Under the pieces are notes generated by a model. The model searched no databases. It was given only the letters and a program-made list of their open reading frames with translations, and had not been told where the DNA came from. This document shows positions 2,573 through 10,626 of a stretch of DNA of 64,000 nucleotides, in pieces (the stretch's first letter is position 1; each line of letters begins with the position of its first letter). Source of the stretch: an uncultured Phycisphaerales bacterium (GTDB lineage Bacteria > Planctomycetota > Phycisphaerae > Tepidisphaerales > Tepidisphaeraceae); contig CAWBQI010000003.1 in assembly GCA_963791055.1 (NCBI GenBank), forward strand, positions 804,570 through 868,569. The letters are read 5' to 3'. Made by a program: the position numbers and the translations under genes.

Positions 2573-3286
2573 ATGAAATTTGCAACCATCATATTTGCTT
2601 TTTTGTTGGCGGTCTCCTCCGCCCGCGGCCAGACGACCCTACCATCGCCCGCCGATGATCCACCCGCTCCGGCCGCCATGGCGCCGTCCTATATCTCCAT
2701 CGGCAAGGAACTGCGCTTGCGGCTCGCGCTGATGCGCCGGACCCTGAACGATCTATCGCTCAATGCGGCGATCAAGCAACACGCCAACCAGATTCTCGAT
2801 TCCGCCGATGCCGATCTACAGCAGCTCCTCGTCGAGGTTCAGTCCGGCCGGATGCCTGGCTATCATCGCCTGATGTCCGTTCCGGACAAACTTCGCGCGG
2901 CCCGGGCCAATCTTATGGCGGTCATCGGCCCCGATCAGAGCGATCTCCTCGAGGAAAAACTCCGCTCCCTGCGCGGCGAAGCGCGAAATCAACTCGGCTG
3001 GCTGAATCAGCAGGTTTCTGATCTCGACCTCTCCGACGGTGCCGGCCGTCCCTGCGAAAAGATTCTGGCTGAAACCGACGCAGCCGTCGAAAAGCTGCCG
3101 GACACGGACGTTCAGGGAGATCAATACGCCAGCGCCCGAGCCGCCATGGACAAGCTTTTCGCTCGGGCACACGATGCCCTGGCCAAAATTCTGACCTCGG
3201 GGGAATTGATGCGTCTGGGCCCGCATTTCGCCGAGCTTGCCGCCCGCCCGACCGTAGCGACCACCCAGCCCGCTTCGGGAAGTTGA
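2573..3286 (+). CDS. secreted hypothetical protein (signal peptide, helical)
   Basis: N-terminal MKFATIIFAFLLAVSSARGQ signal peptide. 237 aa with unbiased composition. Confidence 0.55.
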   Translation: MKFATIIFAFLLAVSSARGQTTLPSPADDPPAPAAMAPSYISIGKELRLRLALMRRTLNDLSLNAAIKQHANQILDSADADLQQLLVEVQSGRMPGYHRLMSVPDKLRAARANLMAVIGPDQSDLLEEKLRSLRGEARNQLGWLNQQVSDLDLSDGAGRPCEKILAETDAAVEKLPDTDVQGDQYASARAAMDKLFARAHDALAKILTSGELMRLGPHFAELAARPTVATTQPASGS

Positions 3287-3298
3287 TACGCTCCAGGT

Positions 3299-3661
3299 TC
3301 ACATATCCTCAAGATTCCTGACGATCTGGCTCCCATCCTGCAACTGAGAAAAATCCGGCGGCTTCTCCGGTGGCGGCATAGCCGACTGCTTTGCCTCTCG
3401 ATGAAATCGGATCGCCAACCGAAGGAAATAACCGCCCAGAACCAACAGTGCCATGGAACAAAACAGATACAGAATCGCGACGAACACACCCCGGAGATTA
3501 ACCGGCGCCGGCCACCGACGAAACGCGTCAAAGACCAGCTCCGCCGCCCCCACAACGCAACCGCCCAACGCGATCACACAATACGACCGGCTGCGAATCG
3601 CGCCGCGGCGCAATGACGCCATCTGGCTGATGCGGTTGGAGTTGAGATGGTCATCTGACAT
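3299..3661 (-). CDS. hypothetical small membrane protein
   Basis: 120-aa ORF with two predicted TM segments. No recognizable family. Confidence 0.35.
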   Translation of the reverse strand: MSDDHLNSNRISQMASLRRGAIRSRSYCVIALGGCVVGAAELVFDAFRRWPAPVNLRGVFVAILYLFCSMALLVLGGYFLRLAIRFHREAKQSAMPPPEKPPDFSQLQDGSQIVRNLEDM

Positions 3662-3673
3662 CGAGCAAGAATT

Positions 3674-3709
3674 GAAATTTCAAATCTCAAATTTCAAATC
3701 TCAAATTTT
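3674..3709 (-). repeat. AT-rich heptanucleotide tandem array (AAATTTGAGATTTGA units on the minus strand) 12 nt after the sucD stop
   Basis: Read directly: gaaatttcaaatctcaaatttcaaatctcaaatttt. The same array and spacing recur at 27504-27547 and a related one at 60710-60770. Confidence 0.8.
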
Positions 3710-3721
3710 GACCCTCCACCC

Positions 3722-4627
3722 TCACCCACCCACTCCCAGCACCTTCGCCATCGTCTGCCCAATCGTCGCCGGACTATCGGCCACCGAGATATTCGCCGCC
3801 TTGAGCGCCGCAATTTTAGATTCCGCCGTCCCCTCGCCTCCGCTGATGATCGCACCGGCATGCCCCATCCGCCGCCCAGGCGGCGCCGTTCGCCCTGCGA
3901 TGAAAGCAACCACCGGCTTCTTTACATTTTTCTTGACGAACACCGCCGCCCCTTCCTCGTCGGTGCCGCCGATCTCGCCGATCAGAATGATCCCATCCGT
4001 CTGCCCATCTTTGGCAAAAAGATCAAGCAATTCGATGAAATTAAGCCCCTTGACCGGATCGCCCCCGATCCCCACGCACGTCGTCTGACCGATCCCCCGC
4101 GTGCTGCATTGCCAGACCGCTTCGTACGTCAGCGTCCCGCTCCGGCTGATGATCCCCACCTTCTTCCCGCTCTTGGCTTCCCCCGGCGGAGTATGAATAT
4201 ACCCCGGCATGATCCCGATCTTGCACTCCCCCACCGTGATGATCCCCGGACAATTCGGCCCAATCAAAACCGATTTCGGCTTATCCTTCAGATACGCCTT
4301 CACCCCGATCATATCCAGAACCGGAATCCCCTCGGTAATCGCCACAATCCCCGCGATCCCCGCATCAGCCGCCTCCATGATCGCATCCGCCGCGAACGGC
4401 GGCGGAACAAAAATCATCGTCGCATCCGCCCCCGTCGCATCGACCGCCTGCCGAACCGTATCAAACACCGGCAACCCATTGGCATCCTTCGTCCCCCCCT
4501 TGCCGGGAGTGACGCCGCCGACCATCTTCGTTCCATAATCCAGGCATCCCTTGGTGTGAAACGCACCAGCCGCGCCAGTGATCCCCTGACAGATGACCTT
4601 CGTTTTGGCGTTAACCAGAATACTCAT
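3722..4627 (-). CDS. sucD: succinyl-CoA synthetase alpha subunit
   Basis: Full-length match to SucD hallmarks (CoA-binding Rossmann fold, GxxGxxG, phospho-His loop region GHAGA). 301 aa. No sucC adjacent. Confidence 0.95.
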
Positions 4628-7546: not shown

Positions 7547-8443
7547 ATGGATCGGATTTGGGCGGCAATCCTTTTGATCTTACTGCTGGCGCCCTCGGCC
7601 ATTGCAGATGAATCCACAACCCGGCCAATGCCCGGGGTCGCCTTGGAGCAAGATGTCCAAACCGATCCGCCGATGCGGTTTTACGTTGTAACCGTGGATT
7701 TGACGAATCCGAGGATTCATTTGAAGGTTTCACGGGCCGGCGATTGGCAGCATTTGCCGCCGCCTTGGGAAGTGAAGTTGATGCCCATCAGTGAGATGGC
7801 CCAGCGCGACGGCTTCAGCGTGGCGGTAAATGGGAATCTGTTCGAATGCAGGCTTTCAGCAACGATTCTGGGCGTGAAATTCCCATATTTTTGGGGAAAC
7901 TGGGCGCGGACCAGCGGATGGGCGATGAGCGATGGACTCCTGTTTTCAGGGTCGCCGGCGGATATGAGCTGGCCAAGCCTGATTGTGAACGATCGGGGAG
8001 AGGTGAACATCGGCCGGTTGGAACGGATTCCATTGGACGCCCGGCAGATCGTTTCGGGGATTTGGCAGATCGTCACCAATGGCCTGGACACCGTCGGCGG
8101 CGATGCGGGCCGCTCCGGCGAGCTCGCCCCCCACGCCGCGGTGGGAATCAATAGGGACGGGAAAACGCTCCTGTTTTTCGTCGTCGATGGAAGACGGCCG
8201 GCATATTCAGTCGGGATGAGCTGGCATCAGATCGCCCGCGAAATGATCGCCCGGGGAGCGTGGAACGCATTGTTATTGGACGGCGGCGGCAGCACGACGC
8301 TGGTTATGCGGAACCAACGGGGAAAGGCCGATGTTGTTAACCTGCCCAGCGATGGGCACGATCTTCCAGGTGCGCCGTCGATCCAGCGCTGCGTCGCCGA
8401 TGCGCTGGGGGTCGTTATCGACGGCGTGACAACTCAACCGTGA
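7547..8443 (+). CDS. phosphodiester glycosidase family protein (NAGPA uncovering-enzyme-like, DUF2233), secreted
   Basis: Signal peptide MDRIWAAILLILLLAPSAIA. LLDGGGSTTL motif and overall length typical of the phosphodiester glycosidase domain. Confidence 0.65.
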   Translation: MDRIWAAILLILLLAPSAIADESTTRPMPGVALEQDVQTDPPMRFYVVTVDLTNPRIHLKVSRAGDWQHLPPPWEVKLMPISEMAQRDGFSVAVNGNLFECRLSATILGVKFPYFWGNWARTSGWAMSDGLLFSGSPADMSWPSLIVNDRGEVNIGRLERIPLDARQIVSGIWQIVTNGLDTVGGDAGRSGELAPHAAVGINRDGKTLLFFVVDGRRPAYSVGMSWHQIAREMIARGAWNALLLDGGGSTTLVMRNQRGKADVVNLPSDGHDLPGAPSIQRCVADALGVVIDGVTTQP

Positions 8444-9576
8444 GCATTGAACCAGATATCCAGCCCGGACCCGAAGTTTCGGTGATCGTTCCCACGATCA
8501 ACGAGTCGGAGAATCTCCCGGCCCTGTTGGAGCGAATCAGCGCGGCATTGTCCGGCGTGGATTTCGAAGTCCTGATCGTCGACGACAACAGCAAGGACGC
8601 AACGCCCGCGGTGTGTGCCGAACTGGCCAAGCGATATCCCCTGAAACTGATGGTGCGCACGCAACCAACCAACGGCCTAAGCGGCGCCGTTCTTCACGGC
8701 ATGGCCGCCGCGCGGGGGAAATTTCTTTGCGTCATGGATGCCGACCTGCAGCACCCGCCGGAAAAACTCCCGGAATTGCTTCACCCGCTGCGCAGCGGCG
8801 AAGCGGATTTTGTGCTGGGCTCGCGCTACATGCCTGGAGGAAGCACCGATGGCGAATGGGGACTATTGCGAAAAATCAATTCACAAGCCGCGACCCTGCT
8901 GGCGCGCCCGTTCGCCGGCAACGCGACCGATCCAATGGCCGGTTTTTTCGCGCTCAGGCGGGAGACATATCAGGGGGCCAGGAACCTTACGCCGCTAGGC
9001 TACAAAATCGCTCTGGAGTTGATGTGCAAATGCCGGGTGCAAAACGTCCGGGAGATACCCATTCACTTCGGTATGCGGCTCAAGGGCCAGTCCAAGCTTA
9101 CGCTGAAACAACAGTTTCGATACCTCGAACATCTCAGCCGATTATACGATTTCACGTTTCCCCGCGCTTCGCCCGTAGTGAAGTTTCTAATCGCCACCGG
9201 AGCAAGCTGGCTGGCCGGTCTGGCGGCATTTTTGTTGTCGGTTCATGCCGGATTGGGATCGATCCAATCCATTGCTATTGCGTATGCGCCAGCGCTCTTG
9301 GTGACGGCGATCTTCCACATCCGCTACGTCCGGACCCAGCGCGAATTTCTACCCCGGCAAACTCCCTGGCTGGATTTCACAGTGATCGCGGCCGCCGAGT
9401 GGATCGCGGCGATTCTCGTCGCTTGCTGGGTGAGCGCGCGAATGTTTCAACCCGGAATTATCGAGACTTTCGCTATCTGTTTCGGATTCGCGACCGTCAC
9501 GCGCTATATATTGCGGAAGGAATTCCTGCAGGACATCAGAGGGCTTCGCAAGGAGTTGCCGAGGGAAACGAAGTGA
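8440..9576 (+). CDS. GT2 polyprenyl-phosphate mannose/glycose synthase (Dpm1-like) fused to a C-terminal GtrA-like 4-TM domain
   Basis: VSVIVPTINESENL, DDNSKD and MDADLQHPP (DXD) motifs. C-terminal four TM helices. GTGA start/stop overlap with the upstream gene. Confidence 0.85.
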   Translation: MSIEPDIQPGPEVSVIVPTINESENLPALLERISAALSGVDFEVLIVDDNSKDATPAVCAELAKRYPLKLMVRTQPTNGLSGAVLHGMAAARGKFLCVMDADLQHPPEKLPELLHPLRSGEADFVLGSRYMPGGSTDGEWGLLRKINSQAATLLARPFAGNATDPMAGFFALRRETYQGARNLTPLGYKIALELMCKCRVQNVREIPIHFGMRLKGQSKLTLKQQFRYLEHLSRLYDFTFPRASPVVKFLIATGASWLAGLAAFLLSVHAGLGSIQSIAIAYAPALLVTAIFHIRYVRTQREFLPRQTPWLDFTVIAAAEWIAAILVACWVSARMFQPGIIETFAICFGFATVTRYILRKEFLQDIRGLRKELPRETK

Positions 9577-9670
9577 GTTGAAAATGCGAGGGGTGCAATG
9601 CTCCAAGCGATTGTGGCTACGGCACCTAGTCCAAAATTAATAACTTGTCTGGAAATTGGAATTCACAAAT

Positions 9671-9945
9671 CCAAATGCAAAGCGGGGGAGGCGGGAGACA
9701 ACCCATACGGCCCCAAGGTTTTTCTCCCGCCTCCCCCGCACCCCCTCCACCCTCTTTCCGCTTCCCCCCAACCGTCCAGTAGAGGAAGAAAGCAAAGAGA
9801 ATTGTGGACATGAATCGTCCTCTTTTTTTCTCTCGGGGGGATGGTTGAGGGGAAAAGGAAAAAGGTGGGGTAGGTGCGGGAGGGGCGGGAAAAAACTTTT
9901 GGGGCCGTATATGGTTTTTCCCGCCCCTCCCGCATTGCATTTCGT
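9671..9945. repeat. about 275-bp inverted duplication (two about 115-nt arms, about 85% complementary, 40-nt spacer); each arm holds its own perfect 15-17 bp hairpin; sits between convergent genes
   Basis: The reverse complement of 9830-9945 aligns base-by-base with 9671-9785. The inner hairpins are gcgggggaggcgggaga...tctcccgcctcccccgc (9682-9739) and gcgggaggggcggga...tcccgcccctcccgc (9866-9931). Confidence 0.85.
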
Positions 9946-10014
9946 CTTAAAGCGATTACCCAATAAATGACCGATTCAGCAGTACGGGTTCGACGCGCGG
10001 GTTGCCTTTGGGAT

Positions 10015-10626
10015 TTACGCTGGGGACCCGACGCCAATCAGCCGCCGCATCGCCTCGAGCGCCTCGCGCCATTCCGAACTGGTCTGTTCAGTTTCATAGA
10101 TCAACACATCGCCCAGTGTCACGAAATCACGGTTTTCCAGCGAACTGCGAATTCGTTTTAGTTGCTCCGTGAACCCGACGATCAGGCTCGTCAGCGTCCG
10201 GCGGCCGACCATGATCTTTTCAAGATCGATCTTCAACAACTGTGCCGTTCCCACCAACGATTCCTGGGCGTGCTGCCAGGTAGTCAGACATCCGGAAAGC
10301 TTTTCCATGGCGCGGACGTTCTGATTGTTCTGAAGGAGCTTGGCCGCTTCGCTCTTGATCCGATCGGCTTCGCCGAGTTGGGCTTCGACCTGCTTAAGAA
10401 TATCCATCGCCATTTCACGGGGATCGGCCGTTTCGATGAAAACGTGATGGCCTTTGAGAGGCGATTTCCGGACATCGCTCAGCCGGCCCAAATCCGGCTC
10501 GAGGCCGTCAATCAGGACATGCACCACCAGACGCCGTTCCTTTTGCAGATGGGCCAGGACCTGGCCGATCGTTCTCAGCCCTAGTTCTTCGGCGCGAAGC
10601 GTTGAATGATCGACGGTCACGGGCAT
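10015..10626 (-). CDS. hypothetical protein downstream of the histidine kinase (possible signalling partner, no receiver-domain motifs)
   Basis: 203-aa ORF with unbiased composition. Follows the HK gene on the same strand. Confidence 0.5.
   Translation of the reverse strand: MPVTVDHSTLRAEELGLRTIGQVLAHLQKERRLVVHVLIDGLEPDLGRLSDVRKSPLKGHHVFIETADPREMAMDILKQVEAQLGEADRIKSEAAKLLQNNQNVRAMEKLSGCLTTWQHAQESLVGTAQLLKIDLEKIMVGRRTLTSLIVGFTEQLKRIRSSLENRDFVTLGDVLIYETEQTSSEWREALEAMRRLIGVGSPA

Follow-up and report, generated by a model that had tools for sequence, protein, structure and literature searches.

What is the large inverted repeat that lies at positions 9671-9945 of the stretch of DNA analysed here? 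This stretch, referred to below as the window, comprises 64,000 nucleotides from an uncultured Phycisphaerales bacterium of the family Tepidisphaeraceae. The repeat had originally been predicted to be an inverted duplication, with a miniature inverted-repeat transposable element (MITE), a recombination site, and a structured RNA as candidate identities. The feature is one copy of an undescribed dispersed intergenic repeat family that is specific to Tepidisphaeraceae, planctomycetes of soil and peat in the class Phycisphaerae. The best reading of its role, in which we place middling confidence, is a dispersed repeat similar to the dimers of repetitive extragenic palindromic (REP) sequences and to bacterial interspersed mosaic elements (BIMEs) that acts as a bidirectional transcript-end module.

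The element sits between two convergent genes, encoding a GT2 glycosyltransferase on the + strand and a DUF8042 protein on the - strand, and is built as had been described. It has two inverted arms of approximately 105-125 nt, each with its own perfect hairpin of 17-20 bp. The complementarity of the arms had been placed at 85%, which is too high. The repeat tool reports an 84-nt ungapped inverted repeat (9673-9756/9859-9942) that is 77% complementary, and a gapped global alignment of arm 1 with the reverse complement of arm 2 matches at 91 of 119 positions (76%). The two strongest inverted repeats of the 64-kb window are the local hairpins of the element, the first at 9682-9704/9717-9739 (23 nt, 91%, including 17 perfect bp) and the second at 9875-9894/9915-9934 (20 bp, 100%). 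Both strands can also be folded as one long hairpin with free energies of -178.7 and -182.4 kcal/mol (z = -11.0 and -12.9 compared with dinucleotide shuffles), and none of 100 shuffles was as stable. Owing to tails made of hexamer repeats, the conserved sequence runs past 9671-9945 and extends to about 9651-9960. Since the open reading frames (ORFs) over the element have no Pfam match and copies of the element differ by frameshifting indels of 1-2 nt, the element is non-coding, in agreement with the original prediction. There were no Rfam matches in the window at gathering thresholds, and a permissive search returned only sub-threshold matches to generic miRNA hairpins. A consensus terminator scan called nothing at the element because its loops are 20 nt long, and a sigma-70 promoter scan found no sites in 9400-10200.

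A search for copies elsewhere places the element in a family. A scan of the GTDB species-representative genomes with the loop sequence found six loci, all of which belong to metagenome-assembled genomes (MAGs) of Phycisphaerales/Tepidisphaeraceae, with one match in each. The flanks of these six are unlike those of the window at both the DNA and the protein level, and only the element is shared. A broader loop-and-arm pattern matched 49 peat and bog metagenome contigs, while viral contigs gave no matches. Through a profile search, about 90 units were located, 70 of them distinct, and clustering with masked flanks assigned these to about 29 different gene contexts. An ordinary terminator, as had been argued from size, is not what is seen, and the possibility that no other copy exists anywhere fails. 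The same architecture recurs in dozens of independent assemblies, both NCBI MAGs and JGI contigs, and therefore the element is not an assembly artefact either. The neighbours are unrelated housekeeping genes that include a PfkB kinase, PGI, an aminoacyl-tRNA synthetase, and M16 peptidases, among others. The 47 neighbours match 102 Pfam families with no recurrence that would point to a regulon or a cis-regulatory link, and no transposase family is recurrent among them. No gene lies between the units, where spacers measure at most 142 nt, and no related transposase gene was found between or beside the units in about 0.5 Mb of loci. Full-text searches of the literature found no description of the element.

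The number of copies per genome appears to be small. Each GTDB genome, including one contig of 5.0 Mb, gave a single match to a pattern that fits about 9% of units, no extra copy was found in approximately 400 kb of flanking DNA, and neither BLAST nor a covariance model found a second copy in the window. Putative genomes hold at least three loci each. Of the 49 metagenome contigs, 8 end inside the element (L012, L017, L024, L039, L047, L048, L049, and L052, in our numbering of loci), which fits either an assembly break at a repeat or a loss of coverage at a GC-rich hairpin.

Each arm is a unit in its own right, described throughout as read on its G-rich strand. From 5' to 3', a unit is made up of a pyrimidine tract TTCTTCTTCT, the block CTGGACGGTT, a G/A-rich leader of about 30 nt, a hairpin, and a tail of 2 to 7 GNATTT hexamer repeats that is found family-wide. 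The stem is GC-rich and 21-24 bp long, and the loop of about 20-26 nt carries the near-invariant motif UUGGGGCC(K)(K)AU (UUGGGGCCKKAU as RNA). In an alignment of 64 units, the leader blocks GGACGGTT, GGGGAA, and GGTGG are nearly invariant. There are two types of unit. Type A has the leader ..GGGGAAGCGGAAAGAGGGTGGAGGGGG and the stem GCGGGGGAGGCGGGAGA, and type B the leader ..GAGGGGAAAAGGAAAAGGGTGGGGTGGG and the stem GCGGGAGGGGCGGGAAAAA. Units are paired in about 40 of 56 sources, always with the left unit on the - strand and the right unit on the + strand so that their 5' ends face the spacer; the opposite or a tandem arrangement was never seen among the pairs. Full pairs consist of one A and one B unit in 19 of 28 cases. 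The 35 distinct spacers range from 42 to 142 nt and have purine- and pyrimidine-rich ends (GAAGAA...TTCTTC) around variable, non-conserved centres. The 60 nt preceding the 64 units hold no conserved -35/-10 or other motif at a constant distance; apart from the conspicuous TTCTTCTTCT tract, positions -60 to -15 carry about 0.1 bit of information.

Three further candidate features of the units were considered. A TA[CT]CC motif occurs within 80 nt of the stem in 16 of 70 units, compared with a background of 8%; this enrichment is modest and many of the carriers are orthologous to one another, and the motif was not accepted as a family trait. A pseudoknot between GGACGG and the loop was rejected on inspection of the alignment, as the K-K positions of the loop vary with no compensating change. 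The GTAG tag is absent from the units, and CGTC is present only within CCGTCC, about 40 nt from the stem. Some units deviate from the common plan. A module of about 25 nt, AATCCTGCGGAAGCTGCCGCAGG, which is itself a mini-hairpin, takes the place of the inner 5' arm and part of the loop at L026:3272-3404 (-), L043:2878-3007 (+) and its L053 counterpart, L034:11038-11168 (+), and L024:156-284 (+). It affects one unit of otherwise intact pairs, in either type and across four contexts, and represents perhaps a third form of unit or an insertion that recurs. In the M16 locus of one MAG (L003:4730-4765, the same in L011), a GC-rich hairpin of about 30 nt, GGGGCTCCCCGCCGACGTATCGGCGGGGCCCC, is inserted in the leader of the A unit; the close relative L004 is without it.

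Which of these structures is under selection? The hairpin of the unit is maintained by compensatory change. In a MAFFT alignment of the 64 units, 93.7% of the cells of the 21-pair hairpin are paired, compared with 51-73% in slid controls; changes on both sides are seen in 14 of the 21 pairs, and no shuffle reaches any of five measures. An alignment of 74 matches to the covariance model, which favours the structure by construction, gives 95.7% paired cells and 15 of 21 pairs with changes on both sides. The double changes are largely the A/B difference itself and represent few old events, and independent rarer stem variants are also present (L016, L020, L025, and L046). The mismatches are distributed unevenly between the strands. 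The G-rich strand shows 173 G·U/U·G cells versus 9 A·C/C·A cells. The two outermost pairs supply 108 of the G·U cells, and when these pairs are left out together with one toggling pair, which is found as GC (21), GU (32), and AU (4) and never as AC, the counts are 33 versus 9. This excess means that the hairpin matters on the G-rich strand, either as RNA or as single-stranded DNA. Within a pair, the selected strands are opposite strands of the DNA, each reading outward.

The long hairpin formed by both arms has a different standing. A and B units of the same locus share an identity of 0.741, hardly more than A and B units of different loci (0.725), and therefore there is no sign of selection on the approximately 275-nt structure. 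Co-evolution of the arms was ruled out on the same comparison (74.1% versus 72.5%). Between loci, A units are 0.843 identical to one another and B units 0.796. The claim of a true inverted duplication made at the site does not agree with these values (84% for A-A and 80% for B-B versus 74.1% for A-B at one locus), as the arms belong to two old types. To judge from these identities, what appears as a compound hairpin is the likeness that two old paralogous types of unit still retain, and not a local duplication. The selected structures are the two local hairpins. The suggestion of a structured RNA is partly supported, by strong covariation in the unit hairpins.

In the window copy, unit A is the left arm. 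It is matched by the covariance model at 9661-9782 on the - strand with 127.4 bits, and on that strand its leader (9740-9779) reads CUGGACGGUUGGGGGGAAGCGGAAAGAGGGUGGAGGGGGU, which corresponds to a C-rich, G-poor tract on the + strand. The hairpin (9682-9739, -) pairs GCGGGGGAGGCGGGAGA with TCTCCCGCCTCCCCCGC through 17 perfect bp and an AACC/GGTT extension, and within it the loop displays the near-invariant UUGGGGCCGUAU motif on the - strand. The tail 3' of the hairpin (9651-9681, -) reads UUUGCAUUUGGAUUUGUGAAUUCCAAUUUCC on the - strand and contains U-rich hexamers of the (GNAUUU)n type. The spacer of 57 nt (9780-9836) has a centre that is not conserved; next to unit A it carries the purine tract GAGGAAGAAAG..., and next to unit B the pyrimidine tract CCTCTTTTTTTCTCTC. 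Unit B, matched at 9834-9954 on the + strand with 123 bits, has the leader GGGGAUGGUUGAGGGGAAAAGGAAAAAGGUGGGGUAGG (9837-9874, +), a hairpin of 20 perfect bp between TGCGGGAGGGGCGGGAAAAA and TTTTTCCCGCCCCTCCCGCA whose loop also holds UUGGGGCCGUAU (9875-9934, +), and the U-rich tail UUGCAUUUCGUCUUAAAGCGAUUACC (9935-9960, +). The tail ends in a TTAAAGCG..TACCC motif that is also found in several other copies. The GT2 glycosyltransferase gene (8440-9576, +; Pfam PF00535, E = 1.4e-35) ends 97 nt before unit A, and the convergent gene for the DUF8042 protein (PF26154, 203 aa; 10015-10626, -) ends 73 nt after unit B. A second region of the window, 3660-3745, was considered as a copy lacking its hairpin and was rejected, with a covariance model E-value of 3.8 and a local alignment not above shuffles. 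It also lies at a convergent junction, between ORFs at 2573-3286 (+) and 3722-4627 (-), and is made up of about 2.5 copies of the 14-nt tandem repeat AAATTTCAAATCTC followed by a C-rich tract ACCCTCCACCCTCACCCACCCACTCCC. The sequence recalls the tail and leader of a unit with no hairpin, a similarity that is not significant.

Copies of the element can persist at one site over long periods. At a junction between two M16 peptidase genes, it is kept in all six assemblies compared. Flank identity among the six is 75-91%, and neither the spacer centres nor the adjacent intergenic DNA can be aligned at this orthologous junction; among intact copies over all loci, the A units are 89-99% identical and the B units 83-98%. 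Slower evolution of orthologous copies than of neutral sites is indicated. In one of the six M16 loci the order of A and B is reversed while the outer tails are still orthologous, and such a flip in place is what recombination between inverted arms would produce.

Other observations point to exchange between sites. Spacer type and B subtype group by putative genome and not by locus. Three different contexts (L044, L022, and L043) share a spacer that is 73-79% identical, compared with 54-65% for orthologous spacers. As the spacer type follows the genome, whole elements must have been copied or converted between sites within a genome. Contig Ga0302324_100000258 (142 kb) holds two separate copies, L015 and L030, with spacers of 124 nt and 45 nt, and one of the two has a truncated partner. 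Given these different spacers on a single contig, homogenisation within the genome is incomplete. To spread between sites, the element would rely on its existing copies, through gene conversion or homologous recombination among them, or on a putative transposase. Decayed copies are found as well, in which a partner is truncated or a single hairpin with both tails is all that is left. One such collapsed form, L010:1979-2061(-) (= L052), has the tails AATGCAAATGCAATGC ... GCATTGCGTTTGATTTT and is found between divergent genes, roughly 110 nt ahead of the start codon of an NAD-dependent DNA ligase (ligA-like) gene. The sequences L007:1-421 and L026:3033-3454 are 99.7% identical from 13 nt upstream of the A unit rightwards and unrelated leftwards, where they have another spacer, a different or truncated B unit, and another flank. 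Here two strains have been rearranged relative to each other, and the edge of a unit is the breakpoint.

At the orthologous GT2/DUF8042 junction of close relatives, the element is absent. In a comparison of L056-L059 and L061-L063, relatives whose DUF8042 proteins are 97, 95, 94, 86, and 84% identical have intergenic lengths of 142/123, 164, 27, 186, and 10 nt, respectively, compared with 438 nt in the window, and nhmmer with the --max option found no remnants of the element in these empty sites. Three of the relatives' junctions hold a small palindrome flanked by an A-tract and a T-tract, similar to an ordinary bidirectional terminator. This palindrome (L061:3113-3254, L062:1158-1280, and L056/L057:4613-4776) reads AAAAGGGGTCATAAGCC ... 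GGCTTATGACCCCTTTT and contains the inner hairpin GCCTATTTTTA..TAAAAATAGGC; in L061 the junction also has a 19-nt tandem duplication, TATGACCCCTTTTCCAACC. Among relatives with neighbouring proteins that are 84-100% identical, the junction thus varies between 10 and 438 nt. The whole intergenic region differs between the window and its relatives, and therefore the change appears to have been a replacement and not a clean insertion.

Copies lie almost exclusively where genes end, at 3' junctions, and this location is one argument for the transcript-end model. Approximately 17 of the contexts are tandem (co-directional), about 5 are convergent, and at most 3 are divergent, with distances to the flanking ORFs that are mostly 20-140 nt and in a few cases several hundred nt. 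Tails have a T fraction of 0.44 on the G-rich strand, compared with 0.20 overall, and in 45 of 72 units there are at least 5 T in the 8 nt that start 0-2 nt after the stem, in a tract that is interrupted (AUUGCAUUUGAAUUU). On the opposite strand, the sequence past the stem is 0.62 C and 0.01 G. A fixed polarity of A and B relative to gene direction was considered and rejected; A is the distal unit in 4 tandem contexts and B in 5, and one orthologous locus is flipped.

It is proposed that transcription of the flanking genes continues into the element, which would then form part of their mRNAs. A transcript arriving from either side would first cross the proximal unit, that is, its hairpin and then the C-rich, G-poor tract, a composition that would suit the loading of Rho. 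It would next meet the distal unit in its functional orientation, a GC-rich hairpin of 21-24 bp followed by U-rich (GNAUUU)n repeats, and there transcription may end or the 3' end may be protected. In this way the module would terminate or stabilise transcripts in both directions.

Several observations weigh against the reading as a REP-like transcript-end module. A plain terminator could do without the invariance of a 12-nt loop, the conservation of a 40-nt G-rich leader, and an exclusive head-to-head order, and these features suggest that the units are recognised by a protein or act as RNA in their own right. The start of the next gene follows some copies at a distance of 20-50 nt, and the collapsed copy is in the divergent region upstream of ligA; both positions would be awkward for an efficient terminator. 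Compared with REPs, the units are 3-5 times larger and have no GTAG/CGTC tag beside the stem, and the copy number appears low for a REP-type family, with one copy in the 64-kb window. No transposase was found among the neighbouring genes of the loci, and neither a target-site duplication nor a clean empty-site boundary was seen at the window copy or at the sites of the relatives, where replacement by recombination is as likely as insertion.

The loop, the leader, and the head-to-head order are better explained by the main rival, a pair of divergent small RNA (sRNA) genes, which we regard as possible though unlikely overall. Each unit would be an sRNA of about 120 nt transcribed outward from the spacer and made up of a G/A-rich single-stranded leader, a terminator hairpin of 21-24 bp with a recognition loop, and a U-rich tail. 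Through its ARN- and GGA-like motifs the leader might interact with Hfq- or CsrA-type proteins or with pyrimidine-rich targets. The two unit types would be siblings, and the cassette would be present in multiple copies homogenised by gene conversion. An exclusive head-to-head arrangement with the 5' ends toward the spacer is expected from a shared bidirectional promoter region, and the hairpin is selected on the outward G-rich strand with the U-rich tail after it. Strong sequence conservation of leader and loop, a stem with compensatory changes, A units that are 89-99% identical between species whose flanking genes are 75-80% identical, and an apparently low copy number all fit as well. Against this pair, there is no conserved promoter motif upstream of the units, a weak negative given that planctomycete promoters are poorly known, and the centres of the spacers are not conserved, the shortest spacer measuring 42 nt. 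Truncation, collapse, or disruption affects many copies, the locus is absent in close relatives, the element avoids divergent (promoter) regions as REPs do, and no Rfam family was matched. A related proposal, which we consider doubtful, is that the units are a new class of structured sRNA in a mobile divergent A/B cassette that is moved or converted between gene 3' junctions; the loop and hexamer tail would then be docking sites for an RNA-binding protein.

Alternatively, the element may function as DNA, as a site for binding or processing by a host protein in the form of a double cruciform or of a single-stranded fold during replication. The partner might be gyrase or a nucleoid protein, or else a recombinase or a RAYT-type Y1 HUH enzyme. 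Both IHF and gyrase bind to BIMEs, and the invariant loop, conserved leader, and hexamer tails resemble protein-recognition elements. Hairpins of single-stranded DNA tolerate G·T mismatches as well, and the rearrangement breakpoints and the inversion at the element lend the idea further weight. The recombination site of the original prediction captures this part of the picture, namely the breakpoints and the flip in place. Against a DNA-level role, an RNA-level one accounts better for the U-rich tail and for the location where genes end, the asymmetry on opposite strands of the two units matches an outward-reading RNA, and no protein partner was found. We consider a DNA site improbable.

A classical MITE seems quite improbable. 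The element would in this case be a non-autonomous DNA transposon with the arms as its long terminal inverted repeats (TIRs), mobilised by a DDE transposase encoded elsewhere and having no host function. Its long inverted arms, non-coding sequence of about 300 bp, many unrelated intergenic sites, decayed copies, and the several contigs that break inside it would all suit a MITE, as would its presence or absence among close relatives, except that this is not a clean insertion. The ends of the element are variable-number hexamer repeats, with no sharp boundary and no target-site duplication. The arms evolve independently as two separate types, each with its own conservation, and their internal hairpins covary and are strand-asymmetric, neither of which a TIR needs. 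Orthologous copies remain 89-99% identical across species while the adjacent DNA diverges, the copy number appears low, and no related transposase gene lies by the units in about 0.5 Mb of loci. Of the MITE-like nature first suggested, presence/absence polymorphism is what was found; target-site duplication and clean empty-site boundaries were not seen, and with the apparently low copy number membership among classical MITEs is unsupported. Finally, a one-off complex bidirectional terminator or an assembly artefact, which might have been inferred from the convergent genes and the lack of another copy in the window, is refuted by dozens of homologous copies in independent assemblies and contexts, and its probability is negligible.

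Almost no non-coding elements have been described from Planctomycetota, in particular from Phycisphaerae, and the family described here is a large REP-dimer-like module, supported by covariation, from outside the Proteobacteria. Its mix of traits is unusual: two unit types stay distinct and are obligately arranged head to head, each hairpin is selected on one strand, copies appear to be few, orthologous sites retain the element over long times, and homogenisation follows the genome. The family is well suited to studying how such repeats disperse when no transposase is apparent, and whether they work as two-way terminators that can be exchanged. In practical terms, the element is a recurrent point of contig breaks and a site of strain rearrangement in peat metagenome assemblies.

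Several known systems share features with the family. Bidirectional intrinsic terminators also place a GC-rich hairpin, A-rich on one side and U-rich on the other, between convergent genes. However, ordinary terminators are 30-50 nt long with loops of 3-8 nt, have no leader, and are not conserved in sequence between loci. Sibling sRNAs such as Qrr, PrrF, and OmrA/B are paralogous RNAs of about 100 nt that consist of a single-stranded 5' part and a terminator hairpin and are homogenised within genomes. The units resemble them in size, in paralogy, in the combination of a conserved 5' part and a hairpin, and in homogenisation. Sibling sRNAs have recognisable promoters and are usually arranged in tandem or dispersed, in contrast to the obligate head-to-head pairs seen here, for which no promoter was detected. 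The Correia/NEMIS elements of Neisseria and the ERIC/IRU elements of enterobacteria are imperfect intergenic palindromes of 100-300 bp that are co-transcribed and form long RNA hairpins. The ability to form such a hairpin from an intergenic imperfect palindrome is common to all of them. The Correia and ERIC elements differ in having defined TIRs, a TA target duplication (Correia), and tens to hundreds of copies, and they are not built from two separately conserved hairpin units.

The closest likeness is to REPs and BIMEs. The REPs of Enterobacteriaceae are palindromes of 20-40 bp that mostly form inverted dimers with variable spacers of 20-100 nt and complementary spacer ends; heterodimers contain two unit types whose stems differ by compensated changes, singletons are remnants of dimers, and divergent gene pairs seldom harbour them, in contrast to convergent or unidirectional pairs (Di Nocera et al. 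2013, PMC3733652). The family described here shares the extragenic palindromic units, the inverted heterodimers (similar to Y and Z), the variable spacers with complementary ends, the singletons as remnants of dimers, and a position near gene 3' ends in convergent and co-directional contexts and rarely in divergent ones. It differs in units of 105-125 nt with a 40-nt G-rich leader and hexamer tails as opposed to 20-40 bp, in the lack of a tag abutting the stem such as that of GTAG/CGTC-tagged REPs, in an apparently small number of loci per genome as opposed to tens to hundreds, and in its planctomycete host. In REPINs, the arms are near-identical and the hairpin of the doublet is the functional form (Bertels & Rainey 2011, PMC3116915). 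As with REPINs, the doublet is the unit that is copied and homogenised, the spacer type travels with the arms between loci, and long vertical persistence at orthologous sites is combined with similarity within genomes; unlike REPINs, the arms are only about 74% identical with no co-evolution, and the population appears small. Taken together, these comparisons place the element in a REP-dimer-like family of repeats in Tepidisphaeraceae that has large units and apparently few copies and that probably acts as a bidirectional terminator or stabiliser of transcripts.

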